64,000 nucleotides of DNA from Gammaproteobacteria bacterium (lineage in GTDB: Bacteria > Pseudomonadota > Gammaproteobacteria > Ga0077536): the NCBI GenBank assembly GCA_024235015.1, contig JACKNG010000001.1:77934-141933 (forward strand), read 5' to 3'. Shown here in pieces: positions 3,494 through 64,000 of this stretch. The notes beneath the pieces are model-generated. The model was not told the origin of the DNA and searched no databases. It saw only the letters and a list, made by a program, of their open reading frames with translations. The first letter of the stretch is position 1; the number at the start of each line of letters is the position of its first letter. The translations under genes were made by a program, and so were the position numbers.

Positions 3494-4351
3494 TCAGCGC
3501 GCGCCGACGCGGACCAGGCCCTCCTGGGCCACGGACACCACCAGCCGTCCGGCGGCATCGTAGAAGCTGCCGCGCGCCAGCCCGCGCGCACCGGCCGAAC
3601 TCACGCCTTCGCAGACGTAGAGCAACCAGTCGTCCATGCGGAAAGGCCGGTGGAACCACATCGCATGGTCGAGGCTGGCGAGGAAGATGTTCTCGTCGGT
3701 GGGGCGCACGCCCTGCGGCATGAGCAGGGTCGTGATCAGGCCGTAGTCCGACAGGTAGGCGAGGATGGCGCGGTGCAGATCGGTGTCGTCGGGCAGGCGG
3801 TCGACGGTGCGCAGCCACACGCGGCGCAGCGGCGGCGTGCCCGGCGCGGTGTCACCGAAATAGGCATCGATGGGCCGGAACTCGAACGGCGCGGCGATGC
3901 TTGCGATGCGCTGGACCTTGGGCGAGGCACCCTCGAGGTTGAGCTGGTCGAAGGTCACGCGGGCAAGTTCGCCGGGCGGCGGCACCGCGGGCATGGCGCC
4001 CTGGTACTCGATGCCGTCCTCGCTTTTGTGGAAAGACGCTTCGAGGGTGAAGATCGGCCGGCCGTTCTGTACCGCGGTGACACGACGGGCAGAGAAGCTG
4101 CCGCCGTCGCGACTGCGATCGACCTCGTAGATCACGGGCCTGGCCGACAGCGCCTCGCGCAGGAAGTAGGCATGGATGGAATGCACCGCGCGCGCCTCGA
4201 CGGTCGACTGCGCGGCCTTGATCGCCTCGCCCAGCACCTTGCCGCCGTAGACCCGTGGCAGGTGGGTGTCGCTGATGGCGCCGCGGAACAGGTTGTCCTC
4301 GAGACGTTCGAGTTCGAGGGCGTTAACCAGGCGTTCGAGGGCGGCGTCCAC
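3494..4351 (-). CDS. tesB: Acyl-CoA thioesterase II
   Basis: Strong end-to-end similarity to E. coli TesB (LFRG..., SFSARRV.A.QNG.PIF, HSMWFHRP, RGEFY..G.LVASTVQEG). There is no in-frame ATG at the right length; a GTG at 4351 gives 285 aa matching TesB length and sits 8 bp after the panB stop. The track's 350-aa version has an implausible Ser/Thr/Arg-rich extension. Confidence 0.8.
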   Translation of the reverse strand: MDAALERLVNALELERLEDNLFRGAISDTHLPRVYGGKVLGEAIKAAQSTVEARAVHSIHAYFLREALSARPVIYEVDRSRDGGSFSARRVTAVQNGRPIFTLEASFHKSEDGIEYQGAMPAVPPPGELARVTFDQLNLEGASPKVQRIASIAAPFEFRPIDAYFGDTAPGTPPLRRVWLRTVDRLPDDTDLHRAILAYLSDYGLITTLLMPQGVRPTDENIFLASLDHAMWFHRPFRMDDWLLYVCEGVSSAGARGLARGSFYDAAGRLVVSVAQEGLVRVGAR

Positions 4352-4358
4352 GGCGTTC

Positions 4359-5177
4359 TCAGCGGAAGGCGTATTCGTCGCTTGGGAAGGTGCCGCCGCG
4401 GACCTCGTTGACGTAGGTCTCGAGCGCGCCGTGGATCGAGCCTTCCTGCTCCATGTAGTTCTTCGAGAAGCGGGTGCGCTTGCCGGGGAAGATGTCGAGC
4501 ACGTCGTAGAGGACGAGGATCTGGCCGTCGACGTGGGGGCCGGCACCGATACCGATGACCGGCACCCCGGCGGCAGCGGTGATGTCGGCGGCGAGGTCGA
4601 TGGGCACGCATTCCAGCAGCAGCACGTCGGCGCCGGCCTCTTCCAGCGCGCGGGCGTCGTCCTTCATCTTCTGCGCCGCCTTTGCTTCGCGGCCCTGTAC
4701 GCGGTAGCCGCCGAACTTGTGGATGGCCTGCGGGGTGAGGCCGAGGTGGGCGCACACCGGCACGCCGCACTCGGTGAGGCGCGCGACCATGTCGATTTCG
4801 AGCTCACCCCATTCGAGTTTGACGATCTCCGCCCCGCCCTCCTTCATCAGGCGCGCGGCGTTGCGCAGGCAGTCGGCCGGCGACGAGTAGCTCATGAACG
4901 GCATGTCGGCCATGATCATCGCGCGCCGCGTGCCGCGCGCGACCATCTGGGTGTGGTACACGATGTGGTCGACGGTGACCGGGATGGTGGTGGCCTGACC
5001 CTGCACCACCATGCCGAGCGAATCGCCGACCAGGATGAAGTCGATGCCGACGCGGTCGAGGGCATGGGCGAAGGCGGCGTCGTAGGCCGTCATGCTCGCG
5101 ATCTTCTCGCCGCGCTCCTTCATCAGGCGCAGGGTACGCACCGTGACCTTGTCCGCCATGTCCTGCTGTGCGCTCAT
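4359..5177 (-). CDS. panB: 3-methyl-2-oxobutanoate hydroxymethyltransferase (ketopantoate hydroxymethyltransferase)
   Basis: 272 aa, collinear with E. coli PanB: TAYD..FA, LVGDSLGM..QG...PVT, AHLGLTPQ, GGY.VQGR, VLECVP, IPVIGIGAG...DGQILV. Confidence 0.9.
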   Translation of the reverse strand: MSAQQDMADKVTVRTLRLMKERGEKIASMTAYDAAFAHALDRVGIDFILVGDSLGMVVQGQATTIPVTVDHIVYHTQMVARGTRRAMIMADMPFMSYSSPADCLRNAARLMKEGGAEIVKLEWGELEIDMVARLTECGVPVCAHLGLTPQAIHKFGGYRVQGREAKAAQKMKDDARALEEAGADVLLLECVPIDLAADITAAAGVPVIGIGAGPHVDGQILVLYDVLDIFPGKRTRFSKNYMEQEGSIHGALETYVNEVRGGTFPSDEYAFR

Positions 5178-5201
5178 AAGGTGCCTCCTCCGGCGCGCCG
5201 C

Positions 5202-5612
5202 TCAGCGCGCTGCGCGTCTGCGTTCGATGCCCTGCACGAAGCGGGCGAGATCGACCGGCGCACGCTCGTGCCAGCCGTCGCCGATGGTTTCATGCTCGTC
5301 GTGGGCCTCGCAAGCGAAGCGCACGTGGCGCGCGCCGACCTCGACCACGCGGGCAGTGGCGGTGACCCGCTCGCCGACCGGGGTGGCGGCAAGGTGGCGG
5401 ACGTCGACCCGCGTGCCGACCGAGACCCAGCCCGCCGGCAGCAGCGCGGCGATGGCATCGGCCGCGGCCATTTCCATCAGCAGGATCATCTGTGGCGTGG
5501 CGTAGACCGCCGGCAGGCCGGCATAGGCATGTTGCACGGTGAGCTCGTGGGTGACCTCGATGCTGCGCGTCGCGCTGGCGCCCAGCGCGACCAGGCTGGC
5601 GAGGTCGATCAT
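5202..5612 (-). CDS. Hotdog-fold acyl-CoA thioesterase (PaaI/FlK-like)
   Basis: 136-aa C-terminal portion of the 5202..6773 ORF starting MIDLASLVALGASATRSIEVTHELTVQHAYAG..., with 4HBT/FlK-like hotdog thioesterase features. The start overlaps the dehalogenase stop (ATGA). Confidence 0.65.
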   Translation of the reverse strand: MIDLASLVALGASATRSIEVTHELTVQHAYAGLPAVYATPQMILLMEMAAADAIAALLPAGWVSVGTRVDVRHLAATPVGERVTATARVVEVGARHVRFACEAHDEHETIGDGWHERAPVDLARFVQGIERRRAAR

Positions 5613-6490
5613 GCGCCGCTGAATGCAGCAATCCAGTCGCGCAGGGCGGCGACGATCTCGGCCGGCGAATCCTCCTGGATGAAATGCAGGCCCTTGACCG
5701 TCACCTCGGTCGTGTTGGGCCAGGCGCGCGCGACCTCGGCCGGGGGGCCGTTCATGATCATGCCGGGGTCCGCACTGATGAACAGCTTGGGGATGGACGA
5801 CTGCGCCAGGTAGTCGGCGTAGTTCTCGACCACGTCGACGACGTCGGCCGGTTCGCCACCGAGCGGGATCTGGCGCGGCCAGGTCAGGGTCGGGCGACGG
5901 CCCTCGCCGGGTTCCAGGAAGGGCGCCCGGTAGGCCGCCATCTCCTCGTCGCTCAGCGTGCGCAGGATCGACGCCGGCAGCACGCGTTCGACGAACACGT
6001 TCTTCTCCAGCACCACGGTCTCGCCAGCCGGCGAGCGGAAAGTCTGGAACATCTCGCGCGCCGAGTCGGGCCACTCGTCCCAGCTCAGCGGCTTGACGAT
6101 GCCTTCCATGTGGGCGACGGCCGCAGCGGCTCCCGGGTGGGTCGCGATCCAGTCGAAGCCGAGCGCGCTGCCCCAGTCGTGGATGACGAAGACGACATCG
6201 CGTTCGACACCGAGTGCAGCCAGCGCACCCTGCCAGTAGCGCCGTTGCTCGGCGAAGGTGTAGCGCTCGGGACCGGAGTCCGGCAGCTTGTCCGAGTCGC
6301 CCATGCCGATGAGGTCGATGGCGATGCAGCGGCCGAGGTCGGCGAGCTGCGGCAGGATGTTGCGCCACAGGTAAGAGGAGGTCGGGTTGCCGTGCTGGAA
6401 CACGATCGGACGTCCCTGCCCCATCTCGACGTAGGCCATGCGGCGGCCTTCGACCTCGACGTATTGCTTCTTGTTCGACCAGTCGTTCAT
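5609..6490 (-). CDS. Haloalkane dehalogenase (DhaA-type alpha/beta hydrolase)
   Basis: 293 aa, collinear with Rhodococcus DhaA: HGNPTSSYLWRNI, IHDWGSALGF (nucleophile Asp), PFL.P, GEPA..V, GLHFIQED (His). Confidence 0.85.
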   Translation of the reverse strand: MNDWSNKKQYVEVEGRRMAYVEMGQGRPIVFQHGNPTSSYLWRNILPQLADLGRCIAIDLIGMGDSDKLPDSGPERYTFAEQRRYWQGALAALGVERDVVFVIHDWGSALGFDWIATHPGAAAAVAHMEGIVKPLSWDEWPDSAREMFQTFRSPAGETVVLEKNVFVERVLPASILRTLSDEEMAAYRAPFLEPGEGRRPTLTWPRQIPLGGEPADVVDVVENYADYLAQSSIPKLFISADPGMIMNGPPAEVARAWPNTTEVTVKGLHFIQEDSPAEIVAALRDWIAAFSGA

Positions 6491-6514: not shown

Positions 6515-7405
6515 TCAGCGCGCGGCGCCGAGCTTGTCGAGTTGCGCAGCCAGGGCGACGATGCGTTCCGCCTGCACCAGGTGCGGGCGGTCGATCATCT
6601 TGCCGTCGAGCTGCAGGGTACCGGCATCGGGATTGCTGGCGAAGGCTTCGATCACGGCGCGTGCGTGGGCGAGCTCCTCGGCCGAGGGCGAGAACGCGGC
6701 GTTGATGACCTCGACCTGGGCCGGGTGGATGGCGATCTTGCCGGTGAAGCCATCGCGCCGTGCCTCGTCGCACACCACCTTAAGACGATCGGTGTCGCGG
6801 AAATCGGCCATCACGGTGTCGATGGCCTGCACGCCGGCGGCGTGGGCGCCGAACAGGCACAGCGAGCGCACCAGCTGGTAGGGGCTGGTCCATTCCTTGT
6901 CCGGGCGCAGGTTGGTGCTGGCACCGACCGCGGCGCCGAGATCCTCCGCGCCCCAGGTCATGCCGGCCAGGCGCGGGGTGTCGAAACGGTAGTCGCCGAG
7001 GGTGAACACCGCGGCGGCGGTCTCGGTCGCCACCGGCAGCAGGGCGATGGCCCCGGCCGGCAGGGCGTGTTCGGCCTCGAGCACGTCGATGTAGTGCGAG
7101 ACCGTGCGGAGATCTTCCGGGCCGTTGGCCTTGGGCACGACGATGCCATCGGGTGCGGCCGGCACCACGGCGGCGATGTCGTGCAGGGTGAGGCCCGAGT
7201 CGAGCGGGTTGACGCGCACGTAGAAGCGGACACCGGCTGCGCGCTCGCCGCGCAGGAAGTCAGCGACCATGCCGCGCGCGGTCGGCTTGCGCGTCGCGGC
7301 GACCGAATCCTCGAGGTCGAGGATCACGCAGTCGGCGCCGATCCCCGACGCCTTGGTCATCTTCTTGTCGCTGTCGCCCGGGGCGAAGAGGAGTGAGCGC
7401 AACAT
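6515..7405 (-). CDS. CitE-like acyl-CoA lyase (HpcH/HpaI aldolase family; citryl-/citramalyl-/malyl-CoA lyase beta-subunit type)
   Basis: Real start [19 protein letters not shown]... is at the ATG at 7405 (296 aa); the 105-aa upstream extension in the track is Arg-rich junk. CitE family hallmarks are present. It overlaps the upstream MaoC stop by 1 nt (ATGA). Confidence 0.8.
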   Translation of the reverse strand: MLRSLLFAPGDSDKKMTKASGIGADCVILDLEDSVAATRKPTARGMVADFLRGERAAGVRFYVRVNPLDSGLTLHDIAAVVPAAPDGIVVPKANGPEDLRTVSHYIDVLEAEHALPAGAIALLPVATETAAAVFTLGDYRFDTPRLAGMTWGAEDLGAAVGASTNLRPDKEWTSPYQLVRSLCLFGAHAAGVQAIDTVMADFRDTDRLKVVCDEARRDGFTGKIAIHPAQVEVINAAFSPSAEELAHARAVIEAFASNPDAGTLQLDGKMIDRPHLVQAERIVALAAQLDKLGAAR

Positions 7406-53719: not shown

Positions 53720-54676
53720 ATGACGCCGCGCCATCGCGCCGTCCCGCCGGCCGCCCTCCAGCCCCGCGGGCGCTACCTCGAGGACAAGCGCAGCTTCGTC
53801 GACACCAGCGACGGCGACGGCGTCAGCGTGAGCCTGCGCACGGCCGTCGCGCCGGCGCGGGGCGTGCCCTATCGCTTCGAACACCCGCTCGTCTGTCTCA
53901 CCAACGTCGGCGCCATCCGTTTCAGCACCGCCAGCGGCGCGAGTACGCGCCACGCCGCCGGCGACATCCTGTTGATCCCGGCCGGCGAGCCGGTCTTCAC
54001 GGACTACCTCGCGCCGAGCGCCGCGGCGCCGCTCGCCTGCACCACGCTGGAGCTCGACAACGCGCTGGTTACGGCGGTCGCCGACCGGCTCGGCGCGGCC
54101 TGGCCGGATGGCGAGCGCTATGCCGCGCTCTATACCGTCGAATCGATCGGCGAGTTCGTCGACGAGGCGACCCGCGTCTGCATCCGCCAGCTCGACCAGC
54201 TGCTGCGTACCGGGTTCCCCGTCGCGCACCGCGAGCACCTGGTCGAGCTCGCCTCGGCGCAACTCGTCACCCTGCTGCTGCAATCGAACGCGCGCGAGGC
54301 GCTGCTCGCGCGGCGCGGCGCCGTGGGCGATGCCTCGCGCCTCGGCGGGCTCGTGGCCTACATCGCGGCGAACCTCGCGGGCGATCTCGACGTCACCGCC
54401 CTCGCCGCCCGCTGCTACATGAGCGTGGCCACCTTCCATCGCCACTTCGTGCGCCGCTTCGGCTGTCCACCGGCCCGTTTCGTACTCGATGCGCGGCTGC
54501 GCGAGGCCGCGCGGCGCCTGCGCGCCGACCCTGCCGTCGCCGTCGCCGAGGTGGCGCGGGCCACGGGGTTCGGCAGCGCCGCCCACTTCAGCACCATGTT
54601 CCGGCGGCGGTTCCGCATGAGTCCGCGCGCCTGGCGCGCGGCGGCGCGGCCGGCCGGCGGAGTTGCGGATTCCTAG
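53720..54676 (+). CDS. AraC-family transcriptional regulator (cupin-like N-domain + AraC HTH)
   Basis: C-terminal HTH_AraC (YMSVATFHRHFVRRFGCPPARFV...ATGFGSAAHFSTMFRRRFRMSP). Start taken at MTPRHRAV at 53720; the track start at 53696 is also possible. Confidence 0.75.
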   Translation: MTPRHRAVPPAALQPRGRYLEDKRSFVDTSDGDGVSVSLRTAVAPARGVPYRFEHPLVCLTNVGAIRFSTASGASTRHAAGDILLIPAGEPVFTDYLAPSAAAPLACTTLELDNALVTAVADRLGAAWPDGERYAALYTVESIGEFVDEATRVCIRQLDQLLRTGFPVAHREHLVELASAQLVTLLLQSNAREALLARRGAVGDASRLGGLVAYIAANLAGDLDVTALAARCYMSVATFHRHFVRRFGCPPARFVLDARLREAARRLRADPAVAVAEVARATGFGSAAHFSTMFRRRFRMSPRAWRAAARPAGGVADS

Positions 54677-54816
54677 CAGAGACTTGCGTCGCCGGGGCAA
54701 GTTCGCGGCGCGAGCTTGACGAGCACTGCGGCCCTGCCTTTCGATGGCCGGCGGTACCGCGCCCGCGGCGCACGCCGCATGCGGCCGGTACGGAAGAGCA
54801 CTACGGGAGGTGGAGG

Positions 54817-55575
54817 ATGTCGACGACTGCCAATCGCGTGGCCCTGCCGACGGGCGCCGAAGGGATCTTCGTGCGCGCACTGCGCCTGGTCTTCGCCGTC
54901 GCCTGCGTGGCCTACGCGGTGATGGCTTTCGATTATTTCATCGGCTACACCAGCGGCCGCGAAGGCCTGTGGTTGCGCCTGTTCACGGCCCTGACCTCGC
55001 CCGAGCACGGCCTCGGCGCGGGTTCGGTCCATGTCGAGCAGGCCGCGCCCTACCGGGCCGGGCTGCCCTTCATGCTGATGCACACCATGATGGGCGCGCT
55101 CTGCCTCGCCGTGGGGCCGTTCCAGTTCTCCGCCGCCGTGCGCCGTCGGTATCCCTACGCCCACCGCGCGATGGGCCGCGTCTACCTCGTCTCCGCCGTG
55201 ATGAGCATGATCGGCGGGCTGCTCTATCTCGGCACGACGTCGTTCGCCGAGGTCTACGCCGGCAAGCCGTTCGCGCTCGCGCTGACCGGGCTCGACCTCA
55301 TGGTGCTGTTCTCGGCCTGGCTCGCCTACGCGGCGATCCGCCGCCGCGAGGTGCGCCGGCACCAGGCCTGGATGGCGTTCAACTTCGGCCTCATCCTGGC
55401 GACCCCGGCGCTGCGCCTGTTCTGGATCCTGTTCGGCTGGTTCGCGCCCGGCCTCGACCAGGAGCAGGCCAACATGGCCATCACCACCTTCCTCCTGCCG
55501 CTGTGCCTGTTCGCGACCCTGGCCTGGATGAGCCTGCAGTACCCGCGCCGGCGCGCGGCCGGGGCGGCGTCGTGA
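54817..55575 (+). CDS. Hypothetical polytopic membrane protein
   Basis: 252 aa with ~6 predicted TM helices and no recognisable catalytic motif. Confidence 0.5.
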   Translation: MSTTANRVALPTGAEGIFVRALRLVFAVACVAYAVMAFDYFIGYTSGREGLWLRLFTALTSPEHGLGAGSVHVEQAAPYRAGLPFMLMHTMMGALCLAVGPFQFSAAVRRRYPYAHRAMGRVYLVSAVMSMIGGLLYLGTTSFAEVYAGKPFALALTGLDLMVLFSAWLAYAAIRRREVRRHQAWMAFNFGLILATPALRLFWILFGWFAPGLDQEQANMAITTFLLPLCLFATLAWMSLQYPRRRAAGAAS

Positions 55576-56210
55576 GCACGGCCGGCGGCTGGGCGCGCGC
55601 GGCCGCGCTCGTTCTCGCCGTGCTGGTGCTCGACCAGGCGGTCGGACGCTTCGTCCTCGGCCATGACCTGCTCGGCGGGCTCAGGGATGCCGCGCAGGCG
55701 GCCGCCGGGCTCGCCCGCTTCCAGGCCGCCTGGCCGTTCGCGTTGCTCCAGGTCGCCGCCGCCGCGGCCGCGGCCTGGTGGGGGCCGGCGGCGGTTCGGC
55801 GTGCGCTCGACGCGGGCCGGGTGTCGCCGCCCTTCCTCGCCGCCTGCGCGGTGTCCGCCGTGACGGCCGTCGTGCTCGCCGAGCCGGGCGAACTCGGCGG
55901 GCGCGACCTGGTGGCCTACGCCTGGGGCATGGGGCTGCTGTGGCTGGGCGCGCTCGGCATGGCGCTATGGGCCGCGCGACGCGGCATCGCGCCCGCGGTG
56001 CGCGACTGGACGGCCTACAGCTACGCCGTGGCCCTGGTGCCGCTCACCGCCCTGCCGAGCATCCCGTTGTGGGCGGCGCTGATAGGCATGTCCGGCGACG
56101 AGGCGGCCGTCTCCGCGTTCACCCTCTCGGCCGCCTTCCACGTGCTGGTTGCGCACTACTGGATCTTCGAGCGGCTGGACGCGCGCCCGCGACCACCTGC
56201 CGCCGCTTGA
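55572..56210 (+). CDS. Hypothetical membrane protein (GTG start overlapping upstream stop)
   Basis: Tail of the 54744..56210 frame from VSTAGGWARAAALVLAVLVLDQ...; hydrophobic segments consistent with 5-6 TM helices; GTGA overlap with the upstream gene. Confidence 0.4.
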   Translation: MSTAGGWARAAALVLAVLVLDQAVGRFVLGHDLLGGLRDAAQAAAGLARFQAAWPFALLQVAAAAAAAWWGPAAVRRALDAGRVSPPFLAACAVSAVTAVVLAEPGELGGRDLVAYAWGMGLLWLGALGMALWAARRGIAPAVRDWTAYSYAVALVPLTALPSIPLWAALIGMSGDEAAVSAFTLSAAFHVLVAHYWIFERLDARPRPPAAA

Positions 56211-56377
56211 CGGGCCGCCGAGCGCGATCGAATTGCGGACGAATGGCGCGTCGCCCCCGGCTCCGTCACCCCCCACCACCCGCGCGTCACTCCGGCGCCC
56301 GCTGCGCCCCGGTGCGGCCATGCACCGAGCGACGATCGCCGCCGTTGCCGGGGCGCCATCGCCACCCCGTGCGCGGC

Positions 56378-57772
56378 TCAGAGCACCGGTCGCCGCAGGT
56401 GCCAGTCGGTGCGCTGCTGGTAGGCGGCGCCGGCGGCGACCAGGCGGTCCTCCTCGAAATGCCGCCCGACCAGTTGAAACACGATCGGCAGGCCTTCGGC
56501 GTTGCTCCCGTTCGGCATGATCACGCCCGGGTGGCCGGAGAGGTTGAACGGGCAGGTGAAGCGATGGAAGCCGGCGATCATGTCGTCGTCGACCTCGGCC
56601 ATGCGGGCACAGGTCGGCACCGGGAAACCGAGCACCGGCAGGGCCAGCGCATCGACGGTGGTGAAGAGCGCGTTCAGGCGGCCCCGGAAATCCTCGCGCC
56701 TGAGCAGCAGTTGCTGGTACTCGCAGCCGCTCATGCGGTTGCCGAGTTCGAGCAGCTGCGTCAGCGCCGGGCCGTAGGCGTCGCGCCGCGCCGGGAAGGT
56801 GTCGCGGTGGGCGAGCGCCGTCTGCACCGCGCACACGCCGAACCAGTCCCAGATCATGTCGGTAACGTCGGGCACGCGGACCTCGCGTACCGTGGCCCCG
56901 GCCGCGGCGAGTTCGGCGACGGCCGCATCGAGCGCCGTCGCCGTCTCGCGATCGGCGCCGGCGGCGATCCAGGCCGTGTCGATGCCGAGGACCAGCCCCT
57001 CGCAGCCGCGCGCGACGGCGGCGGCGAAGTCCGGTACCGGGCGCTGGGCGGCGGTCGGGTCGCGCGGGTCGGGCCCGGCGATGACGCCGAGCACGGCCGC
57101 GGCATCGGCAACGGAGCGTGCGAACGTGCCGACGTGGTCGAGCGTGGCGGCGAGTTCGAACACGCCGTGGCGCGACACCCGGCCCCAGCTCGGCTTGATC
57201 GCGCTCGCGCCGTTGGCCGCGGCCGGCAGCTTGATCGAACCGCCGGTCTCCGAGCCGATCGCCGCGACGCAGAGGCCGCCGACGGTAGCCACCCCGCTGC
57301 CGCTCGACGAGGCACCCGACCAGTGCGCAGCCGACCACGGGTTGCGCGGCGCCGGGAACGGCGGGCGGTGCTCGGCGTAGACGCCCTCGGTCAGGGCGAG
57401 CTTGGCGGTGAGGATGGCGCCGGCGGCTTCGAGGTGTTCGACCACGGTGGCGTCGGTGCGCGCGATGCGCTCGCGGTGGATGCCCATGCCGGCCGTGGTC
57501 GGCAGGCCGCTGACGTCGAGGATGTCCTTGATGGCGATGGGCACGCCGGCCAGTGGTCCGACACGCTCGCCGCGCGCGATGCGGGCGTCGAGCGCGGCGG
57601 CCTGGGCGCGGGCGCGCTCGCGCATGTCGGTGATGATGGCGCCGAGCGCGGGCTCGCGGCGGTCGACCTCGGCGAGTTGGGCCTCGAGCACCGCGCCGGC
57701 GGTGAGTTCGCCGGCGGCGACGCGACGCGCGAGGCCGGTGACGGTGTACGCTTCTGGGCCTGCTGGGGACAT
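56378..57772 (-). CDS. Amidase (amidase-signature family)
   Basis: 464 aa from MSPAGPEAYTV... with the AS signature GGSSSGSGVATVGGLCVAAIGSETGGSIKLPA (Ser-cisSer-Lys triad region); CAGGAG RBS. Confidence 0.85.
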   Translation of the reverse strand: MSPAGPEAYTVTGLARRVAAGELTAGAVLEAQLAEVDRREPALGAIITDMRERARAQAAALDARIARGERVGPLAGVPIAIKDILDVSGLPTTAGMGIHRERIARTDATVVEHLEAAGAILTAKLALTEGVYAEHRPPFPAPRNPWSAAHWSGASSSGSGVATVGGLCVAAIGSETGGSIKLPAAANGASAIKPSWGRVSRHGVFELAATLDHVGTFARSVADAAAVLGVIAGPDPRDPTAAQRPVPDFAAAVARGCEGLVLGIDTAWIAAGADRETATALDAAVAELAAAGATVREVRVPDVTDMIWDWFGVCAVQTALAHRDTFPARRDAYGPALTQLLELGNRMSGCEYQQLLLRREDFRGRLNALFTTVDALALPVLGFPVPTCARMAEVDDDMIAGFHRFTCPFNLSGHPGVIMPNGSNAEGLPIVFQLVGRHFEEDRLVAAGAAYQQRTDWHLRRPVL

Positions 57773-57845
57773 CGTCGGGGCTCCTGGGCGTGGAACGGGG
57801 GTGTGAACCGGCGCCAGGGTCCGGCCGGCACGGGAGGATGGCAGC

Positions 57846-58874
57846 ATGAATGAGAAAACGGGCGAGCGCGAGGGCGTGCCGGCGGACTACCCGGGGCGCA
57901 TCGTCGACTTCGGCGGGCGGGCGTCGCACATGGTCATCGCCCTGCTCGGCGTGCAGAGCACGGCTGAAGCGCAGCACGCCGCTTTCATGGACACCATGCG
58001 CGGACTCGCGCGCGAGGCACACGGCCCGGCACGGCTCGAAGCCGGCCGTCATGGTGGCAAAGTGGGTGTGCCGACGACGCTGGCCGTGGCCTACTGGACG
58101 GATCGCCAACGGGCGGATGACTGGTGGCGGAGCGGCGCGGTCTCCCGCTGGTGGCAGGGCCTGGCTTGCGACGGCGAGGCCGGTTGGTTCTGCGAGCGCA
58201 TGGCCATCCCCGAGGCGCGCTTCAACTATGCCGCCGGTACCGAGGATCGCCACGGTTCGGCCGCCACCCTGCCGCTCGCGCCGTGCAAGATCTTCGGCTA
58301 CTGGGGCGCCTACCGCGATCGGCTGCCGGCGTCGGCCGCCGATCCCTTCGAGAGCCCGCTGGCCGAGCCGCCCGCGCCGCGCGACCCGGTGACGCGAGGC
58401 CGCCGTCTCGCCGTTCGCATCCCCGACAACCTCTGCTACATCCGCGAGGGCCAGGGCTGGGCCGACTGCGGCGCGGAGGAACGCGCGGTGTGGAACGAGC
58501 AGATGAAGGACAAGGTCGACACCTGGGTGGGCCGCCTCGCCGCCGACCCGGTGGCGACCGGCTGCCTGGCCTTGCGCGACATCGCCGAGTTCGACGCCCT
58601 CACCGGCGCACCGCTCGAACGTCGTTCGCAACTCGCCTTCCTGCTCTCGCTCGGGCACATCGAACGCGCGGCGCGGACCGACCCCGCCCACCTCGCCGTA
58701 CATGGTGCCTTCGCGCAGATGTACCGGGAGCCGCGCTTCACGCCGCGCATGCACGTGTGGGTGGAGGTGGGGATCCTGAAGGAAGACGAGTTCGCGGCCG
58801 AGTACGTCAACTGTCACCCCGGGACGGGCTTGCTGCCGTTCTTCACGGCCACGCCGGTTTCGGAGCGTGGCTGA
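57846..58874 (+). CDS. Aldoxime dehydratase (haem-dependent Oxd family)
   Basis: 342 aa, collinear with Pseudomonas OxdA (GYWGAYRDRLPASAAD vs GYWGSMRDRFPISQTD; IREGQGWADCGAEERAVW; EYVNCHPGTGLL). Confidence 0.85.
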   Translation: MNEKTGEREGVPADYPGRIVDFGGRASHMVIALLGVQSTAEAQHAAFMDTMRGLAREAHGPARLEAGRHGGKVGVPTTLAVAYWTDRQRADDWWRSGAVSRWWQGLACDGEAGWFCERMAIPEARFNYAAGTEDRHGSAATLPLAPCKIFGYWGAYRDRLPASAADPFESPLAEPPAPRDPVTRGRRLAVRIPDNLCYIREGQGWADCGAEERAVWNEQMKDKVDTWVGRLAADPVATGCLALRDIAEFDALTGAPLERRSQLAFLLSLGHIERAARTDPAHLAVHGAFAQMYREPRFTPRMHVWVEVGILKEDEFAAEYVNCHPGTGLLPFFTATPVSERG

Positions 58875-59097
58875 ATCCTGGTGCGCGACGGGCAGCACTT
58901 ACCGGCAGCCTCGCCGGGAGAGTGAACCAGCAATACGCGCGGCTCAGGTGCTCCCTGCTCGCCCAGCCTGTTTGCAGATCGCCGCGTATACCGTGGGACG
59001 CAAGGCAAGACCTCACGCCGATGTTCGTTTTCATTCCTTGCGGGCACGACCATGCGCCCCGTGGAACCGGTTCGTTCCCCGCGGTATCTAAGCCGGC

Positions 59098-60351
59098 CTA
59101 CTTGCGCACGAGCGAGCGCACTTTCGAAGAGACGATGACTTCACCCTCCCGCACGTAGGCGCGGTGATTGGCCTCGGTGCGTGCCGGGTCGTAACGATAA
59201 TTCACCATCACGCCCCAGGCGTTCTGCAGGCCGACCGGCGATGGGTCGGCGTCAGCGTGGATGTCGTACAGCTCGGCACCGTTCGAGAGGTGAAAATTGG
59301 CGACCGGATCATGCGCCCAGCCGTTACTGCGCTTGGCGCCGGTCAGGTACCGCGCCGCGAGCTTGCGCGCCGCTTCCTTGCCGGGGGGCGAACCGTCCGT
59401 GCCCGCGATGTCGCCGAGCAACTCGTGGTTGCGCTCGGCACTGTCGACATAGCGCCGCAGCCCGGGTACCGGCGACAAGGTGACGTAGGTCGTCAATCCC
59501 GGGAGCTCGTCGTTCAGGTTGGCGACGACCTGCTTGATGAGGAAATTCCCGAACGAGATGCCCTTGAGCCCTGCGTGGCAGTTCGAGATGGAATAGAACA
59601 CCGCCACCTTTGCATCGACCGGATCCAGCGACTCGCGTTCAGCAGCAATGATGGCGCCGATACTCGCCGGGATGCGCTTCATCAGCGCGATCTCGACGAA
59701 GATCAGCGGCTCGTCTCCCATGGCCGGGTGAAAGAACCCGAACAGCCTGCGATCCGGATCGGCGACACGCTGGCGCAGATCGTCCCATCCGGCGATTTCA
59801 TGCACGGCCTCGTACTCGATGATTTTCTCCAGTACGGCCGCTGGCGTGGACCAGTCGATGCGCCGCAGTTCGAGGAAGCCGCGATTGAACCAGGAGGAAA
59901 AAACGTGCTGAAAATCGTTGTCCAGGCCACTCAGGCCGGGCGCCTGTTGCAGGTTGCCCAGGAGCTTCTCGCGCATGCGGACCAGGCGCGCCGTCGCGCC
60001 CGGAACGCGATTCAGCGTACGCAGTAAAGCCAGGCTGCGGGGTTCGGCGGCGTAGTGGAGGCGCCGGGTCGCGTCGGCATCACCCGCGCGCCAATCCGAG
60101 ATCGCCTGGCTCAACGAGGTCTCGTCGGCCCCGAACCTGTCCGCGACCTGCTCGAAGAACGCCGCTTGGTCGGCGGCAGCGGCTGCTTCGAAGCGGTCGA
60201 GAATGTCGCGCGCGAGCACGAGCCCCGCGGCTTCACTCCGCTCTTCGATGAGCGTGCGGCAGGCGTCGGCAATCGAGGAATCGCTGTCGACCGACCAGGG
60301 CATGCTCGAAACGCGACGAAGGATGTCGCTCAGGAAGCTCCGGCTCAGCAT
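59098..60351 (-). CDS. Malonyl-CoA decarboxylase family protein
   Basis: 417 aa with MCD family blocks (FFHPAMGDEPLIFVEIAL, FYSISNCHAGLKGISFGNFLIKQVV, LSPVPG). Confidence 0.8.
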   Translation of the reverse strand: MLSRSFLSDILRRVSSMPWSVDSDSSIADACRTLIEERSEAAGLVLARDILDRFEAAAAADQAAFFEQVADRFGADETSLSQAISDWRAGDADATRRLHYAAEPRSLALLRTLNRVPGATARLVRMREKLLGNLQQAPGLSGLDNDFQHVFSSWFNRGFLELRRIDWSTPAAVLEKIIEYEAVHEIAGWDDLRQRVADPDRRLFGFFHPAMGDEPLIFVEIALMKRIPASIGAIIAAERESLDPVDAKVAVFYSISNCHAGLKGISFGNFLIKQVVANLNDELPGLTTYVTLSPVPGLRRYVDSAERNHELLGDIAGTDGSPPGKEAARKLAARYLTGAKRSNGWAHDPVANFHLSNGAELYDIHADADPSPVGLQNAWGVMVNYRYDPARTEANHRAYVREGEVIVSSKVRSLVRK

Positions 60352-60427
60352 GTTTCAAATCCCCTGTTGATGCCTGCCAACCGCGAAATTCCGGACGTCC
60401 ACATTCCCCGTGCCGTCGCGGCAAAGC

Positions 60428-60937
60428 TCAATGCATGCCAGCGCGTGTGAACTGCACCGCGACGGCGCAAAGATACAGGCCTATTCCAAATATCGAATGG
60501 GACATCAAAGTCTTGAGCCGGGCGACGGTGGGATTCGGCGTGTTCGAAGAGGCCACGCCCATTCCGAAACAAGGCTGCATGACGAAAAAAGGGAAGACCA
60601 TCGTGGCGAGGCCGAACAGCAGCGCAGGCAGAACCGATGGCCGAGCCAGCCATGCACCGGACATCAACACGACCAGCGCAAGGCCATAGACCCCACCGAT
60701 CGCGTAATGCGCCGCCCAGCCCACGGCACATTCGTGCGGCCTCGATTCCGCCCCGGCGATGCTCGTGTGCACGAAGCGGCCACTCGGCATGTGGCAGAAC
60801 CAGCGCCCGACGATGCACCAGTTCGTCGGCGCGATTCCCACGGTGAATTTCAACGTGATGGCCCAGAGATCCAGGACCGCTGTCGCACCCAGGCCTACCA
60901 GGAGCGCCACCCCGAAGGGCTCGGTATCGATGGTCAT
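60428..60937 (-). CDS. DUF2938-like small membrane protein
   Basis: 169 aa with 4 predicted TM segments; GC (~60%) already lower than the bulk of the window. Confidence 0.5.
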   Translation of the reverse strand: MTIDTEPFGVALLVGLGATAVLDLWAITLKFTVGIAPTNWCIVGRWFCHMPSGRFVHTSIAGAESRPHECAVGWAAHYAIGGVYGLALVVLMSGAWLARPSVLPALLFGLATMVFPFFVMQPCFGMGVASSNTPNPTVARLKTLMSHSIFGIGLYLCAVAVQFTRAGMH

Positions 60938-60985
60938 GCTCGCGACCCCGGTTACGATTTGTAGCGTCGGATTCTAGCGTGAGAT

Positions 60986-61766
60986 GGTGTCAGGTTTATT
61001 TTTCGTTCAAGCCCCGGCCGGTTCCCGGCCTGCCGGGACCGAGCGCGCTCATCCGCCTTCCCAGTTTCTCCTCGATCGCCATCCGGAACCGCCTGCCGCC
61101 GGTCAACTGGTTTCGCCTAACCGCGGTGCGCACGGCCTCGTCCGTCTCGGGGCATGCCGCCGTTCTGACGAAAGCCACGTAGTTCGATAGGTCGTCGTCC
61201 GTCCCATGGGCGAGAGGTAACAGCGGCAGGGCATGCACGTCTGCCTTCGTCATTCCTGAGCGGACACTGAAACTCGACCACGGATAATCTTCCGGGGCCG
61301 CCACCATGCCGGCGCGCACCGGGTTCATTTCGATATAACGGCAGCAGGCCCAGAGATAGTCGTCGCGATCCACGAGAGAGCACTTGAAACGACCTTCCCA
61401 AAGGGTGCCGCTACGACGTTCGAGGCGATTCACGTAACGCGTTTGCCGCGCGGCTACCACGCGCATGAGTTCGGAGAGTGCATCGGGCTCGTCGTGCGGT
61501 TCGAGCAGCAGGTGGACATGGTTTGTCATCAGGCACCAGGCGTACAACCCGACTCCCCGCACCTGCATCTGTTCTATGAGGTTGTCGACGTAGTACGCAT
61601 AGTCCGCGTCGGCAGCGAAAACCGGTTTACGGTCATGCCCTCGGTGGACGACGTGATGCGGGAAGCCGGTGAGAAAGGCGCGTGGGTATCTCGGCATCTT
61701 GGAACCTCCTTGTTCCTTGATGAGTCATGGTGCCGGGTGGCTTAGTGGGAAAATAAACCTGACACC
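60986..61766. mobile_element. REP-associated tyrosine transposase (RAYT) unit bounded by perfect 17-bp inverted repeats GGTGTCAGGTTTATTTT / AAAATAAACCTGACACC
   Basis: Left inverted repeat at 60986..61002 and right at 61750..61766, read directly from the sequence; they flank the Y1-transposase gene. Coordinates ±1. Confidence 0.7.
60996..61697 (-). CDS. REP-associated tyrosine transposase (IS200/IS605 TnpA-like Y1 transposase, RAYT class)
   Basis: 233 aa from MPRYPRAFLTGFPHHVVHRGHDRKPVF..LMTNHVHLLLEP (HuH motif), with the catalytic Tyr region YPWSS typical of RAYTs. Confidence 0.8.
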   Translation of the reverse strand: MPRYPRAFLTGFPHHVVHRGHDRKPVFAADADYAYYVDNLIEQMQVRGVGLYAWCLMTNHVHLLLEPHDEPDALSELMRVVAARQTRYVNRLERRSGTLWEGRFKCSLVDRDDYLWACCRYIEMNPVRAGMVAAPEDYPWSSFSVRSGMTKADVHALPLLPLAHGTDDDLSNYVAFVRTAACPETDEAVRTAVRRNQLTGGRRFRMAIEEKLGRRMSALGPGRPGTGRGLNEK

Positions 61767-61787
61767 TTTTCTCTTGAGGCCTCAGAT

Positions 61788-62234
61788 TCACGCGACGATA
61801 CCGGTGTCGAATTCCTCGAAAACACCGTTATTGCAGCGTAGGCAAGTCCGCCCGACCATATTCTTAACGGAGAAAATGGCGGAAGCGCTGCACTTCGGGC
61901 ATTTCAATTCGTCGCGATTCAGGTCTAGGCCTGTCATATTCCCGCAAGCTTCACAGAAGCAGTCTGAAAGGAACCCGGTTCGCTTATCAAACGCCTCTTT
62001 TATTCGCGCTCGACGCGCCTTTCGATCCGAGGACCACCACCATTTTTGACCTGCGTTGAGATCGGCGAGTTCTTCTTTAGAGAATCCAAGCACTTGCGCG
62101 ACGTATTCTAATTCGCCGGGATGCGGGCAAATCTGTCGTTCCCCCAAACTCGTTGCCACATAGAACATCCCGCCCCAACCGGACGCGAGCCGCAACGCGC
62201 AGTTAGCGCACCGAATTTCGCGGATTCTCGGCAT
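61788..62234 (-). CDS. Hypothetical Cys-rich (multi-CxxC, Zn-ribbon-like) protein in the low-GC islet
   Basis: 148 aa with CANC...CPHP, CFCEAC, CPKC and CLRC; ~50% GC; a hairpin TGAGGCCTCA sits right after the stop. Confidence 0.5.
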   Translation of the reverse strand: MPRIREIRCANCALRLASGWGGMFYVATSLGERQICPHPGELEYVAQVLGFSKEELADLNAGQKWWWSSDRKARRARIKEAFDKRTGFLSDCFCEACGNMTGLDLNRDELKCPKCSASAIFSVKNMVGRTCLRCNNGVFEEFDTGIVA

Positions 62235-62239
62235 GCCGA

Positions 62240-62704
62240 TTAGGTGTTTCGTCTGTACGGGATATTGAAGACTCTCGCCAGTCCCACGTGCTCTACGGGC
62301 CGCGACTCTTGACGTTCTGATTGGCGTTGAAGCTCGTTCTTGTTTATAGCGTCCTCGATGCCGAATTTGAACATATCAATCGTGACTTGCTCAAAGAGGT
62401 CGCCCATATCGGAACTCTCTTCTCGGATACCTCGGAGCTGACTTACTACGGCGGGCAGATGCTTAACAGCGGACACTACGTGGGGCATGTGCCGACTATA
62501 GGTCTCGACGAGGGCGCCTTGGGATCTCGCCGGAAAAATGTCCTTTAGGTCAGTTAGACCACCGAAATCCTGCTGGGCTGACTTGATTGCGAAGTAATAA
62601 ATGTTGGCAATGGTGTTGACCAATTCTTCCGACAGGTCGGACGTATCGCCGAATCCGTCTCGGATAGCGGCGCGGACGCTCTCTTTGAACTTCGTTGCCG
62701 TCAT
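62240..62704 (-). CDS. Hypothetical protein in the low-GC islet
   Basis: 154 aa from MTATKFKESVRAAIRDGFGDTSDLSEELV...; AGGTGG RBS; stops 5 nt before the next gene start. Confidence 0.5.
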   Translation of the reverse strand: MTATKFKESVRAAIRDGFGDTSDLSEELVNTIANIYYFAIKSAQQDFGGLTDLKDIFPARSQGALVETYSRHMPHVVSAVKHLPAVVSQLRGIREESSDMGDLFEQVTIDMFKFGIEDAINKNELQRQSERQESRPVEHVGLARVFNIPYRRNT

Positions 62705-62722
62705 CGACGTACCACCTGAGGC

Positions 62723-62791
62723 CTAACGCCACAATGAGCCGCACTTGACGGCGACGACTGGAGCGGCAGCGAAAGGAGGAGCGGTCAAGTG
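62723..62791. repeat. Conserved upstream element, copy 1: CTAACGCC...GC(A)CTTGACGGCGAC...GGAGCGGCAGCG...GGAGCGGTCAAG
   Basis: ~70 bp homologous to 63561..63631. Contains the inverted pair CTTGAC...GTCAAG ~40 bp apart and sits ~45 bp upstream of the 62704 start codon. Confidence 0.6.
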
Positions 62792-62824
62792 TCGGCCTCG
62801 ATTGTGATGTTAGAAGGAGCTTTC

Positions 62825-63547
62825 TTACTTATCCACTGGAGGCCGCACCCGATCTAGGTATCGTGAAAGCGTTGGATTCACAACGACCTTCCCAGGTTCT
62901 TCGGAGCTTACTGATATTTGCAGGATGCCTTGTACTAGCGAATTGACTGACTTGAATGCGGCCAAAGCATCGTTCTGGATTTCGTCGATGTTCTCATCCC
63001 ATAAGTGGAAGTACTTCCTCCGCGTAGTGCGGAGATAAGTAAACGCTTCAACGTGATCTTCTGGAACGCGTTTTGTCACGGCAAGTATTCTGATCCGATG
63101 CTCTTGGCCGAGCTTTTCGAACGTGCGGCCGAAGAAAGCCCTCTCGACCTCTTCAGAGCGCTCTTCGGGGTTCTTCGAAAGAGGCTCCATCTCCCAGACA
63201 AGTTGGGCGAGCATTTCCGCGACATGTGCACAAAGCTCAATTGCGGCCAAAAACTCGCCTAAGCAATAGCACCGCTTCGCGGACTTAAAGGGAGCCAATA
63301 GCCGTTCGAATAGTTTCTCGGTATGTGGGAGAAACGGCAGGTATAGCTCCGGTGTGCTTAGTTCTGCATACCGTTCAAGCACTTCGATGGATAGAGCGGT
63401 TAAAGGCAATTCGAAGAACGACTCTGCCAACGCGTACTCATGAGACCTGCCGGGATCAATCTCCCCAGTGTGAACACGGCGAGGAAAATCGCTCCTGACC
63501 GGGACTCCCATGAAATTGAGCGTTACTTGGACCGTTCCATTGGCCAC
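62825..63547 (-). CDS. Hypothetical protein in the low-GC islet (GTG start)
   Basis: 240 aa; a GTG start follows a GAAGGAG RBS; no recognisable domain. Confidence 0.5.
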   Translation of the reverse strand: MANGTVQVTLNFMGVPVRSDFPRRVHTGEIDPGRSHEYALAESFFELPLTALSIEVLERYAELSTPELYLPFLPHTEKLFERLLAPFKSAKRCYCLGEFLAAIELCAHVAEMLAQLVWEMEPLSKNPEERSEEVERAFFGRTFEKLGQEHRIRILAVTKRVPEDHVEAFTYLRTTRRKYFHLWDENIDEIQNDALAAFKSVNSLVQGILQISVSSEEPGKVVVNPTLSRYLDRVRPPVDK

Positions 63548-63560
63548 GGATTAGCTCCTT

Positions 63561-63631
63561 CTAACGCCGCGTTAACCTGCGCTTGACGGCGACTGACCGG
63601 AGCGGCAGCGCAGGGAAGGAGCGGTCAAGCG
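63561..63631. repeat. Conserved upstream element, copy 2 (same element as 62723..62791)
   Basis: gcgCTTGACGGCGACtgaCCGGAGCGGCAGCGcagGGAaGGAGCGGTCAAGcg, at an equivalent distance upstream of the 63547 start. Confidence 0.6.
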
Positions 63632-63661
63632 TCAGGTTCAACGTTTTGTTGGGCGGCGTGT

Positions 63662-64000
63662 TCATTGATCTCGAATCTGCGAGGCCCTAATTTTCGACTC
63701 CAGATGCGGCTTCAATCTCTTTATCGTTTCCGACAGAGCGCCAATAAACCACGACGCAGCGAATGGAGAAATATAGATCTCGTCTATGAGCAGATTAACG
63801 TTTGTTCTAACGTGGCGTCCTTGGGACACATCGTAGGGTGGCGTGTAGCCAGGGTTCGAATTGGGGTTATGTAGGATAAAGAGCCTTAGCTCGTTTTCGT
63901 ATCTATAGAATTCCCGCTTGGTTGTGACCAACCGGTGCCGGCTGAGATCCGTTTCCGGAAGATAATCTCGATACTGAACTTCTCCGGCAAATATCGTTTC
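63662..64000 (-). CDS. Hypothetical protein in the low-GC islet, partial (open to the window edge)
   Basis: The track lists 63662..63931 (TTG start), but the frame stays open through 64000 (...ETIFAGEVQYRDYLPETDLSRHRLVTTKREFYRYENELRLFILHNPN...), so the gene probably starts beyond the window. Confidence 0.4.
   Translation of the reverse strand, partial: ETIFAGEVQYRDYLPETDLSRHRLVTTKREFYRYENELRLFILHNPNSNPGYTPPYDVSQGRHVRTNVNLLIDEIYISPFAASWFIGALSETIKRLKPHLESKIRASQIRDQ

Follow-up and report, generated by a model that had tools for sequence, protein, structure and literature searches.

The right-hand end of the stretch of DNA analyzed here (64 kb in all, hereafter the window) raises the question of what a low-GC islet of four small genes, two of them preceded by copies of one repeated element, represents beside a RAYT gene. 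The original prediction regarded the four genes as a candidate novel defense or addiction module and the repeat as a shared operator or promoter. Our analysis shows that the repeat is an integron attC recombination site, and because it is, the four genes make up three independent cassettes rather than one module (Table). We place at roughly 93% the probability that a chromosomal integron gene-cassette array of an uncultured gammaproteobacterium has its distal end in the region from about 61774 to 64000 and presumably past it.

Table. Coordinates of the genes, recombination sites and cassettes of the islet and of the adjoining RAYT unit (positions within the window)
Feature	Position	Strand	Description
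Possible remnant of the cassette 3 attC (R''-side arm), far side of the RAYT unit	60963..60979	minus	CGCTAGAATCCGACGCT
RAYT unit	60986..61766	minus	Gene 60996-61697 between inverted repeats GGTGTCAGGTTTATTTT; NF047646, Y1_Tnp
Probable remnant of the cassette 3 attC (R'' flank)	61774..61786	minus	CTGAGGCCT-CAAG; 9/9, then CAAG
Cassette 3	61774..62726	minus	Two genes (g2, g1), own attC a remnant; starts at TTAGGCCTCAGGTGG, immediately past G of the R' box of attC-b
g1	61788..62234	minus	148 aa, multi-CxxC zinc-ribbon protein
g2	62240..62704	minus	154 aa, orphan all-helical protein, invariant GDTSDLSEE-VNT motif
attC-b	62721..62815	minus	Recombination site of cassette 2; 95 nt, TTCTAAC (R'') ... 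GTTAGGC (R')
Cassette 2	62727..63564	minus	838 bp; g3 and attC-b; begins with TT of the R' box of attC-a and closes with G of that of attC-b
g3	62825..63547	minus	240 aa, HEPN-fold protein (putative RNase), N-terminal extension
attC-a	63559..63654	minus	Recombination site of cassette 1; 96 nt, GCCCAAC (R'') ... GTTAGAA (R')
Cassette 1, partial	63565..64000	minus	g4 and attC-a; leaves the window; ends at G of the attC-a R' box (63565)
g4	63662 to beyond 64000	minus	C-terminal part, at least 112 aa, of a DUF2971/PDC-S31-like protein; frame open at the window edge

The compositional break that first drew attention to the islet is real. GC content is 0.69-0.79 between 54000 and 58800, 0.57-0.69 over the stretch with malonyl-CoA decarboxylase, DUF2938, and RAYT, and 0.50-0.55 from 61650 up to the right edge of the window, so that the drop amounts to about 0.72 to 0.50-0.55; foreign cassettes fit a GC content that is low relative to the host. 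The description of four co-directional open reading frames was likewise accurate (g1-g4, all on the minus strand), as was the observation that the final one, g4, leaves the window. The small protein reported to be studded with CxxC pairs is g1, which has four such pairs in its translation, and the gene adjoining the islet is indeed a RAYT, scoring 85.8 bits against NF047646 (cut-off 80) and matching Pfam Y1_Tnp (PF01797) with an E-value of 1e-9. Only 5 bp separate g2 and g1, with no copy of the repeat in between. The NCBI MAG of this uncultured gammaproteobacterium bears locus tags H6977_00660 and H6977_00665. Sequence searches of g1-g3 against Pfam, NCBIfam, PADLOC, and PHROG gave no significant match, the 64 kb window has no tRNAs, and no Rfam family was detected, either in an E-value scan of 60900-64000 or in a gathering scan of the whole window.

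The feature that identifies the islet is the repeat. The inverted CTTGAC...GTCAAG pair noted previously does lie inside it, and the element as a whole measures 95-96 nt rather than ~70 bp. Two copies are present in the window, spaced 838-840 bp apart where none would be expected by chance, and no further copy occurs elsewhere in the 64 kb. Covariance model R1, built for this family, gave attC-a a minus-strand score of 101.8 bits (E 7e-28) versus 31.7 bits for the plus strand, and scored attC-b at 102.6 bits (E 4e-28) versus 23.3 bits, scores that are circular for the window because the R1 sites were picked with a pattern taken from it; independent support comes from anatomy, covariation, boundary complementarity, and IntI adjacency. 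Hairpin z-scores range from -2.9 to -3.9 overall and from -3.6 to -3.9 for attC-a, and the arms are unequal in both sites, with 18 nt on the R'' side versus 16 nt on the R' side in attC-a, and 19 nt versus 16 nt in attC-b. Both sites lie on one strand 838 bp apart, within the cluster rule of IntegronFinder, which asks for two or more attC sites in one orientation, separated by less than 4 kb (PMC4889954). The intact sites in the window number only two, the minimum for a CALIN, and this counts against the integron-array reading, as does the want of an intact attC in cassette 3.

The same core pattern was found in 62 stretches of GTDB genomes, mostly of Gammaproteobacteria, and its cultured carriers include Nitrococcus mobilis Nb-231, Halomonas stenophila CECT 7744, and Thiorhodococcus mannitoliphagus DSM 18266; a comparison of the attC with PLSDB plasmids gave no match. 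Copies are co-oriented, reach as many as 11 per 8 kb, and are typically spaced about 400-800 bp apart, with a median distance of 608 bp between consecutive crossover points. One of the loci fetched for comparison, L075, has 17 sites in 11.7 kb. Another, L029, was rejected as a family member, as its match to the pattern has no boxes and seems to have arisen by chance within other sequence. Among 122 family sites, 93-110 nt long (median 96), the ends conform to NNNYAAC in 118 and to GTTRNNN in 112, and AAC and GTT are invariant and paired in all 104 aligned sites. The consensus hairpin comprises 23 pairs, 12 of which show compensatory double changes, such as columns 15/87 (AU 44, UA 24, CG 22, GC 6) and 23/81 (CG 63, UA 24, GC 13). 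The R'' arm exceeds the R' arm by 2-3 nt in 96 of 102 sites; this asymmetry is what is expected from the extrahelical bases that give an attC its polarity. At two loci, L031 and L062, an integron integrase adjoins the array (TIGR02249, 494 and 471 bits, cut-off 265 bits), intI is divergent, and the top strand of every attC is directed away from it, with the same gene and attC polarity as in the window. A crude longest-ORF test, in which 40 cassettes were co-oriented with their attC and 19 were opposite, was counted against the integron-array reading. The centre of the element, CGCTGCCGCTCC, is almost invariant and common to several orders. Sequence conservation of this kind is unusual, since in most described attC sites it is the centre that varies, and it too counts against that reading.

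Cassette boundaries provide a further constraint. A crossover at each G|TT makes the unit between two such points an independently mobile, normally promoterless gene, and the units of the window show the corresponding signature: the first 13 nt of cassette 2 (TTAGAAGGAGCT...) are perfectly complementary to the sequence leading into its own R'' box. We compared the 12 nt that follow the GTT of one site with the 12 nt that precede the AAC of the next, the latter taken as their reverse complement, and the window's own pair matched at 10 of 12 positions, with a 13-nt perfect inverted repeat. Across 64 consecutive pairs the mean match was 7.1, versus 4.5 when both sequences came from the same site and 4.1 for random pairs, and matches of at least 8/12 occurred in 58% of consecutive pairs, versus 5% and 3.6% in these two controls (Mann-Whitney p 8e-10 and 4e-17, respectively). 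Metagenome contigs that carry g2 break inside attC, as expected of a repeat, and outside the window all contigs with g2 or the RAYT measure no more than 4 kb and break in attC.

If the elements function as attC sites do, the bottom strand of each, which is the window plus strand, would when single-stranded fold into an imperfect hairpin, and IntI would recognize the folded strand by its paired R''/R' boxes and by 2-3 extrahelical bases and would cut the top strand inside the R' box, at G|TT. Recombination between two attC sites yields an excised circular cassette, and recombination between attI and attC re-inserts it beside the integrase. The ribosome-binding site (RBS) of each cassette would sit just past the crossover point. 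IntI presumably acts, or formerly acted, on the array in the window. A search of the 64 kb window, which ends inside cassette 1, revealed no integron integrase or attI, and this counts against the array reading; intI, if present at all, would lie to its right. A complete integron, as opposed to a CALIN, has intI next to the array and divergent from the cassettes, together with attI and Pc.

These features have to be weighed against the proposal that the repeat is an operator or promoter that co-regulates g3 and g2 within a single autoregulated defense or addiction operon of four genes. The repeat stands 11-16 nt ahead of the g3 and g2 start codons and is about equally far from each RBS, and its TTGAC resembles a -35 hexamer. 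However, the constant RBS distance arises because cassette structure puts the RBS just after the G|TT crossover, and the coding strand has no sigma-70-like promoter in either copy. The claim that the repeat lies 5' of consecutive genes holds for g3 and g2, but it is equally 3' of g4 and g3, and in dozens of genomes it flanks unrelated ORFs. With variable positions that co-vary in a way that preserves the hairpin, and with g3 homologs that occur without g1, g2, or g4, a regulatory element governing one operon is an extremely improbable explanation. It is also very unlikely that the attC sites are real and the four genes nevertheless act jointly, as one defense system split over cassettes. Both g3 (HEPN) and g4 (PDC-S31-like) have defense-like affinities, and defense cassettes are reported to be abundant in integron arrays (bioRxiv 10.1101/2024.07.02.601686, 10.1101/2024.07.02.601719), but in the few cases found the genes do not co-occur: g3 homologs in the arrays of L075, L056, and L076 have entirely different neighbors, g2 homologs outside integrons are paired with an unrelated 149-aa gene, and g1 homologs elsewhere follow unrelated small genes. 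The four genes form three separately mobile cassettes, not the one module first proposed.

The RAYT that adjoins the islet suggests another origin for the repeats, as REP/REPIN elements mobilized by this RAYT, given that palindromic REP hairpins are RAYT substrates and that a second RAYT is found in the L076 integron array, beside the same HEPN cassette family. The sequences do not bear this out. The RAYT in the window is flanked by 33-nt inverted repeats of its own (60981-61013 and 61739-61771, exact over 17 nt) that are unrelated to the 95-96 nt element, are found nowhere else in the window, and are absent from the fetched attC arrays and other fetched loci except contigs of the same genome. 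These contigs are also the only fetched loci with the present attC family that have a RAYT, and the RAYT of L076 sits in an array with a different attC. The elements are 95 nt long, co-oriented, and gene-spaced, and they have AAC/GTT boxes together with the cassette-boundary complementarity specific to IntI recombination. The chance of a REP origin is close to nil.

With the repeats taken as attC sites, the position of the RAYT can be considered in terms of how the array ends. Given how cassette 3 begins, ...CCACCTGAGGCCTAAC would be expected directly behind the last stop codon, and 4 nt past the g1 stop the sequence reads CTGAGGCCT, a match at 9/9 positions, followed by CAAG in place of AAC. 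Beyond the RAYT unit, the segment CGCTAGAATCCGACGCT agrees at 15/17 positions with the attC consensus (positions 11-28) and lies in the same orientation. Its Smith-Waterman score of 24 lies between the 95th (21) and 99th (25) percentiles of the null, and on this sequence similarity its assignment to the cassette 3 attC is suggestive only. A search of the whole window with R1, with filters off and E <= 10, revealed no intact third attC, either past g1 or in the vicinity of the RAYT. It appears that the cassette 3 attC has decayed and is interrupted or replaced by the RAYT unit with its inverted repeats, so that this unit lies inside the remnant and marks the array end. The association of RAYT with attC consists of two anecdotal cases, the decayed terminal attC of the window and the L076 array, and a literature search for RAYT and integrons gave no pertinent paper among the highest-ranked titles and abstracts.

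The cassette proteins differ in how much can be said about them. The g3 protein has the alpha-helical fold of HEPN proteins and contains an Rx4H motif in which R176 and H181 are invariant in 35 homologs, and Rx4-6H is the HEPN catalytic motif (PMC3710099). A profile of g3 homologs compared with PDB sequences matched no chain, 3jrt included. Assignment of g3 to DUF3644, which is counted among the HEPN families (PMC3710099), was based on a weak PADLOC match reproduced by 1/35 family members, and it was rejected as an assignment; the match counts only as HEPN-consistent. Homologs of g3 occur between attC sites in L075 and L056, and the homolog in L076 is the first cassette, adjoins IntI (459 bits), and has its own attC of 66 nt (GCCTAAC...GTTAGAG). 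On a less probable reading, g3 would represent a new family of HEPN RNases spread in the form of an integron cassette, in L076 in the expressed first position beside IntI.

For g4, whose N-terminal half lies outside the window, the fragment gives a weak match to PDC-S31 (E 0.0016-0.0021) and a match to phrog_34615 (E 9e-8). Its full-length relatives, of 238-251 aa and 32-34% identity (L070:4027-4782 and L071:1910-2626), match PDC-S31 over their whole length, with E-values of 1e-11 and 2e-13, respectively; against Pfam DUF2971 (cut-off 22 bits), the L071 relative scores above the cut-off (23.3 bits) and the L070 relative below it (14.5 bits). The structure model of g2 is confident, yet it has no structural neighbor. 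The g1 protein has CxxC pairs at residues 9-12, 94-97, 112-115, and 131-134, plus C36/H38 and C92, and its Pfam matches to zinc ribbons are all sub-threshold. Homologs of g1 fall into 260 representative clusters (E <= 0.001) of mostly stand-alone proteins of 120-165 aa. We also considered g2 and g1 as a conserved pair, a notion that was rejected because the partner genes elsewhere are unrelated.

Horizontal acquisition of accessory DNA, part of the original prediction, is supported for the islet. Its supposed defense or toxin character survives for g3, by virtue of the HEPN fold and Rx4H motif, and for the PDC-S31 relatives of g4, but not in the form of a single four-gene system, and the statement that no known system could be recognized is wrong at the level of the locus, which is a classical integron cassette array. 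What the islet contains is three independently captured cassettes, open to shuffling by an integrase, instead of a four-gene system with its own regulator, and these cassettes are probably silent unless brought beside an integron promoter. Integron cassettes are reported to be a reservoir of compact defense and toxin genes (bioRxiv 10.1101/2024.07.02.601686, 10.1101/2024.07.02.601719), which makes g3 and g4 reasonable candidates for screening. What the cassette proteins do we infer from these resemblances. It is possible, although we consider it doubtful, that the cassettes, the PDC-S31-like g4 and the orphan pair g2 and g1 among them, have single- or two-gene anti-phage or toxin functions and, separately, that RAYT-type Y1 transposases target folded attC hairpins. 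The attC family itself, represented by 104 aligned sites in model R1, could aid array-finding in environmental Gammaproteobacteria.

Each component of the locus can be set beside a known system. Like the integron-cassette HEPN family (PDB 3jrt) and HEPN toxins such as HepT (PMC3710099), g3 is cassette-borne and combines a HEPN fold with an invariant Rx4H; unlike them, it carries about 75 additional residues at the N terminus, lacks a neighboring MNT antitoxin, and belongs to no Pfam family. PDC-S31, a candidate defense system of PADLOC, is matched by the full-length relatives of g4 and weakly by the g4 fragment itself, and DUF2971 is matched above threshold by one of the two relatives (L071). 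The neighboring gene passes the RAYT model and has flanking inverted repeats in the manner of RAYT/REP systems (IS200/IS605-like Y1 transposases), whereas here the RAYT lies outside the cassette system and its repeats are unrelated to attC. The window resembles a CALIN (PMC4889954) in having two or more attC sites of the same orientation within 4 kb and no intI in 64 kb, although that class requires intI to be absent nearby and the expected intI side is to the right of 64000, outside the window. The closest counterparts are the sedentary chromosomal integrons, such as the Vibrio cholerae superintegron with its VCR attC sites and those of Xanthomonas and Pseudomonas stutzeri, which likewise consist of co-oriented, short, mostly single-gene promoterless cassettes with highly similar attC sites, RYYYAAC/GTTRRRY boxes, and a GC content unlike that of the host. 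Their divergent IntI at one end is matched in relatives that carry the present attC family. The array in the window differs from them in its 95-96 nt attC with a near-invariant centre, in the RAYT at its end, and in that no integrase or attI was seen for it; in other respects the locus is an ordinary and well-known kind of mobile gene store with uncharacterized genes, which will be unsurprising to specialists.

The repeated element in the low-GC islet at the right end of the window, originally predicted to be a shared operator or promoter, is real and occurs twice, 838-840 bp apart, between g4 and g3 and between g3 and g2 of the islet's four genes (g1-g4), with no further copy in the rest of the 64-kb window. 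Both copies fold as a long imperfect hairpin (z-scores -2.9 to -3.9), and their outer stems differ in sequence with pairing retained. On the minus strand, the elements start with GCCCAAC and TTCTAAC and end with GTTAGAA and GTTAGGC, termini recognizable by sequence as the R'' (RYYYAAC) and R' (GTTRRRY) boxes of integron attC sites. Bases after the GTT of the first site pair with the lead-in to the AAC of the second as a 13-nt perfect inverted repeat, the expectation for a cassette inserted by crossover between the G and the TT. R1, a covariance model of the attC family, gives both sites ~102 bits on the minus strand versus 23-32 bits on the plus strand, and with filters off finds nothing else in the window; these scores are circular in part, since R1 goes back to a pattern derived from the window itself. 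Independent support for the attC reading comes from anatomy, covariation, boundary complementarity, and adjacency to an integron integrase (IntI).

A scan of the conserved core against one genome per GTDB species returned 62 stretches, mostly from Gammaproteobacteria MAGs; the three cultured carriers are Nitrococcus mobilis Nb-231, Halomonas stenophila CECT 7744, and Thiorhodococcus mannitoliphagus DSM 18266. Where the element recurs, it marks attC arrays, two of them with IntI (L031 and L062), and not an operator. Within arrays the copies (two mismatches allowed) are strictly co-oriented, with a typical spacing of 400-800 bp, a maximum density of 11 copies in 8 kb, and a median crossover-to-crossover distance of 608 bp. 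Family sites measure 93-110 nt (median 96, n = 122); 118 of the 122 start with NNNYAAC and 112 end with GTTRNNN. All 104 sites of alignment A1 carry the AAC and GTT triplets, paired with each other, and 12 of 23 consensus pairs show compensatory double changes. The R''-side arm exceeds the R'-side arm by 2-3 nt in 96/102 sites. Extrahelical bases give attC sites their polarity and cause such asymmetry, which assigns the role of attC top strand to the minus strand of the window, the one that encodes the genes. Boundary complementarity as seen in the window holds across the family: cassette starts match the lead-in to their own attC at a mean of 7.1 of 12 positions (controls 4.5 and 4.1), and 58% of pairs, versus 4%-5% in controls, agree at 8 or more of the 12 (p 8e-10 and 4e-17).

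The centre of these sites (CTTGACCGCTCC...CGCTGCCGCTCC...GTCGCCGTCAAG; A1 columns ~26-78) hardly varies among the several gammaproteobacterial orders that carry them, and the arms beside the R boxes vary and co-vary, the opposite of the usual attC picture of a variable centre. Some sites keep the centre and R' arm, but in place of the R''-side arm they have different sequences that recur, such as CCTAACC[AG]ACGGTGTCCACTTTT[TG]CGTAGGAACTC or GGAGGAGTCCATTTCATC, which may be variant arms or the termini of elements that insert into attC sites. Fourteen contigs with the gammaproteobacterial-type attC belong to a single "Planctomycetales" MAG, HKST-UBA24, and 13 of these are very short, at 0.5-1.2 kb; similar matches occur in MAGs of Thermotogae, Nitrospirota, Trueperaceae, and Alkalispirochaeta. 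The probable cause is mis-binning of integron fragments, and not genuine spread between phyla.

Coordinates of features in the window and in loci (L numbers) fetched from other genomes
Feature	Position	Strand	Description
g1	61788-62234	minus	148 aa, four CxxC pairs
g2	62240-62704	minus	154 aa
g3	62825-63547	minus	240 aa
g4	63662 to beyond 64000	minus	reaches past window edge
attC-a	63559-63654	minus	between g4 and g3
attC-b	62721-62815	minus	between g3 and g2
Cassette 1 (partial)	63565 to beyond 64000		g4 + attC-a
Cassette 2	62727-63564		838 bp; g3 + attC-b
Cassette 3	from 62726 leftwards		g2 + g1, 5 bp between them
RAYT unit	60986-61766		GGTGTCAGG…CCTGACACC, directly after CTGAGGCCT-CAAG
Second RAYT	L076:10928-11919		inverted-repeat-flanked
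L031 integrase	4640-5620		TIGR02249 494 bits, cut-off 265
L062 integrase			TIGR02249 471 bits, cut-off 265
Replaced R'' arms	L008 ~6640-6740; L028 ~2390-2490; L012; L019 ~2025-2053; L052 ~3572-3599
P0040 (g2 homologue) pair	L077:5307-6272; L078:508-1473; L079; L080
HKST-UBA24 contigs	L009, L012, L015, L017, L018, L022, L024, L026, L034, L037, L039, L041, L047, L066

GC content is 0.69-0.79 over 54000-58800, 0.57-0.69 across the malonyl-CoA decarboxylase gene, the DUF2938 gene, and the RAYT (REP-associated tyrosine transposase; 58800-61700), and 0.50-0.55 from 61650 to the window end. The reported low-GC islet is therefore present; the second interval is intermediate between a host level of roughly 0.72-0.79 and the cassettes, so composition changes in steps and not all at once. 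At least four small genes are indeed tightly packed on one strand, and g1-g3, described as lacking recognizable domains, have no significant match in Pfam, NCBIfam, PADLOC, or PHROG. Over the whole window, no tRNA gene is present and no Rfam family reaches its gathering threshold.

The element's constant distance from the RBS, correctly noted and the attraction of an operator or promoter, is accounted for by cassette structure, since each RBS comes directly behind the crossover. That regulatory reading fails because the element's coding strand carries no promoter-like site, unrelated genes are flanked in many genomes, and variation preserves the hairpin. A single four-gene system fails too: crossover points, by which cassette limits were set, divide the genes into three cassettes, and the families do not co-occur; the idea of one novel module thus falls. 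From the proposed acquired defence or addiction island, foreign accessory DNA and some defence- or toxin-like content survive.

The islet does abut a RAYT (NF047646 85.8 bits, cut-off 80), bracketed by its own 33-nt inverted repeats, a neighbour that could make the element its REP/REPIN. This fails because those repeats are unrelated to the element and unique, and because, contigs of the window's own genome aside, none of the fetched loci with this attC family has a RAYT; the sole other one found (L076) belongs to an array whose attC is of another kind. The most economical reading of the sequence would place the RAYT unit within a decayed terminal attC at the array end. Cassette 3 lacks an intact attC; CTGAGGCCT-CAAG begins 4 nt past the g1 stop codon, and CTGAGGCCT matches 9/9 the lead-in predicted from the cassette 3 start (…CTGAGGCCT-AAC). 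Beyond the unit, a 17-mer identical at 15/17 positions to the R''-side arm of the attC consensus (null percentile ~97th-99th) is only suggestive as a remnant of that site. The L076 RAYT (NF047646 84.7 bits; 42% identity to the window RAYT; its own inverted repeats unrelated) lies two genes from IntI, directly after a g3-family cassette; together with the window this gives two integron arrays with a RAYT beside the same cassette family.

Functions of the cassette proteins are predicted from fold and profile. The g4 fragment matches PDC-S31 weakly and phrog_34615 at E 9e-8; for two full-length relatives (32%-34% identity) the PDC-S31 matches reach E 1e-11 to 2e-13, and one of the two also passes the DUF2971 threshold. 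The relative closest to g4 (65% identity) comes from a Halofilum MAG; it has only 129 aa where full-length members have ~240-250, and the stretch around it is poor in genes, with two weak attC-like matches. Exact NCBI protein records exist for g2 and g3 (H6977_00660 and 00665), and none was found for g4 (63662-64000), which may be a truncated gene or carry a pseudogene annotation. g2 is nearly an orphan (seven homologues), and a structural search with its confident helical model found no neighbours. In every case an unrelated 149-aa gene comes next after its homologue P0040; upstream of this pair is csrA in L077 (recX-alaS-csrA) and L080, and after it comes a LysR-type regulator gene in L078 and L079. 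No attC of the window family surrounds the pair in these four loci, so the g2 family travels outside integrons too. The g1 family comprises small zinc-ribbon proteins (~260 representative clusters) with no Pfam family. Partners of g2 and g1 homologues elsewhere are mutually unrelated, so the g2-g1 pairing is not demonstrably a conserved module.

All 35 g3 homologues (40%-66% identity) are hypothetical. The AlphaFold2 model is confident (pLDDT 92.8, pTM 0.90), and R176 and H181, invariant among homologues, form an Rx4-6H motif, the defining HEPN RNase active site (PMC3710099). Homologues lie between attCs in L075 (17 attCs in 11.7 kb) and L056, and in L076 as the first cassette beside IntI (459 bits), with a 66-nt attC from a different family. 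g3 represents an unnamed HEPN-fold family with predicted RNase function; its homologue profile has no sequence match among PDB chains, which sets it apart from 3jrt, the "integron cassette HEPN" family already described. The locus merits attention for this uncharacterized family and for the RAYT apparently lodged in a terminal attC. It is otherwise an integron cassette array, a well-known kind, whose status as complete integron or CALIN (attC cluster lacking an integron integrase; definitions in PMC4889954) depends on intI right of the window. In L031 and L062, attC top strands are directed away from a divergently transcribed intI, the layout of a canonical integron, and gene/attC polarity is the same as in the window.
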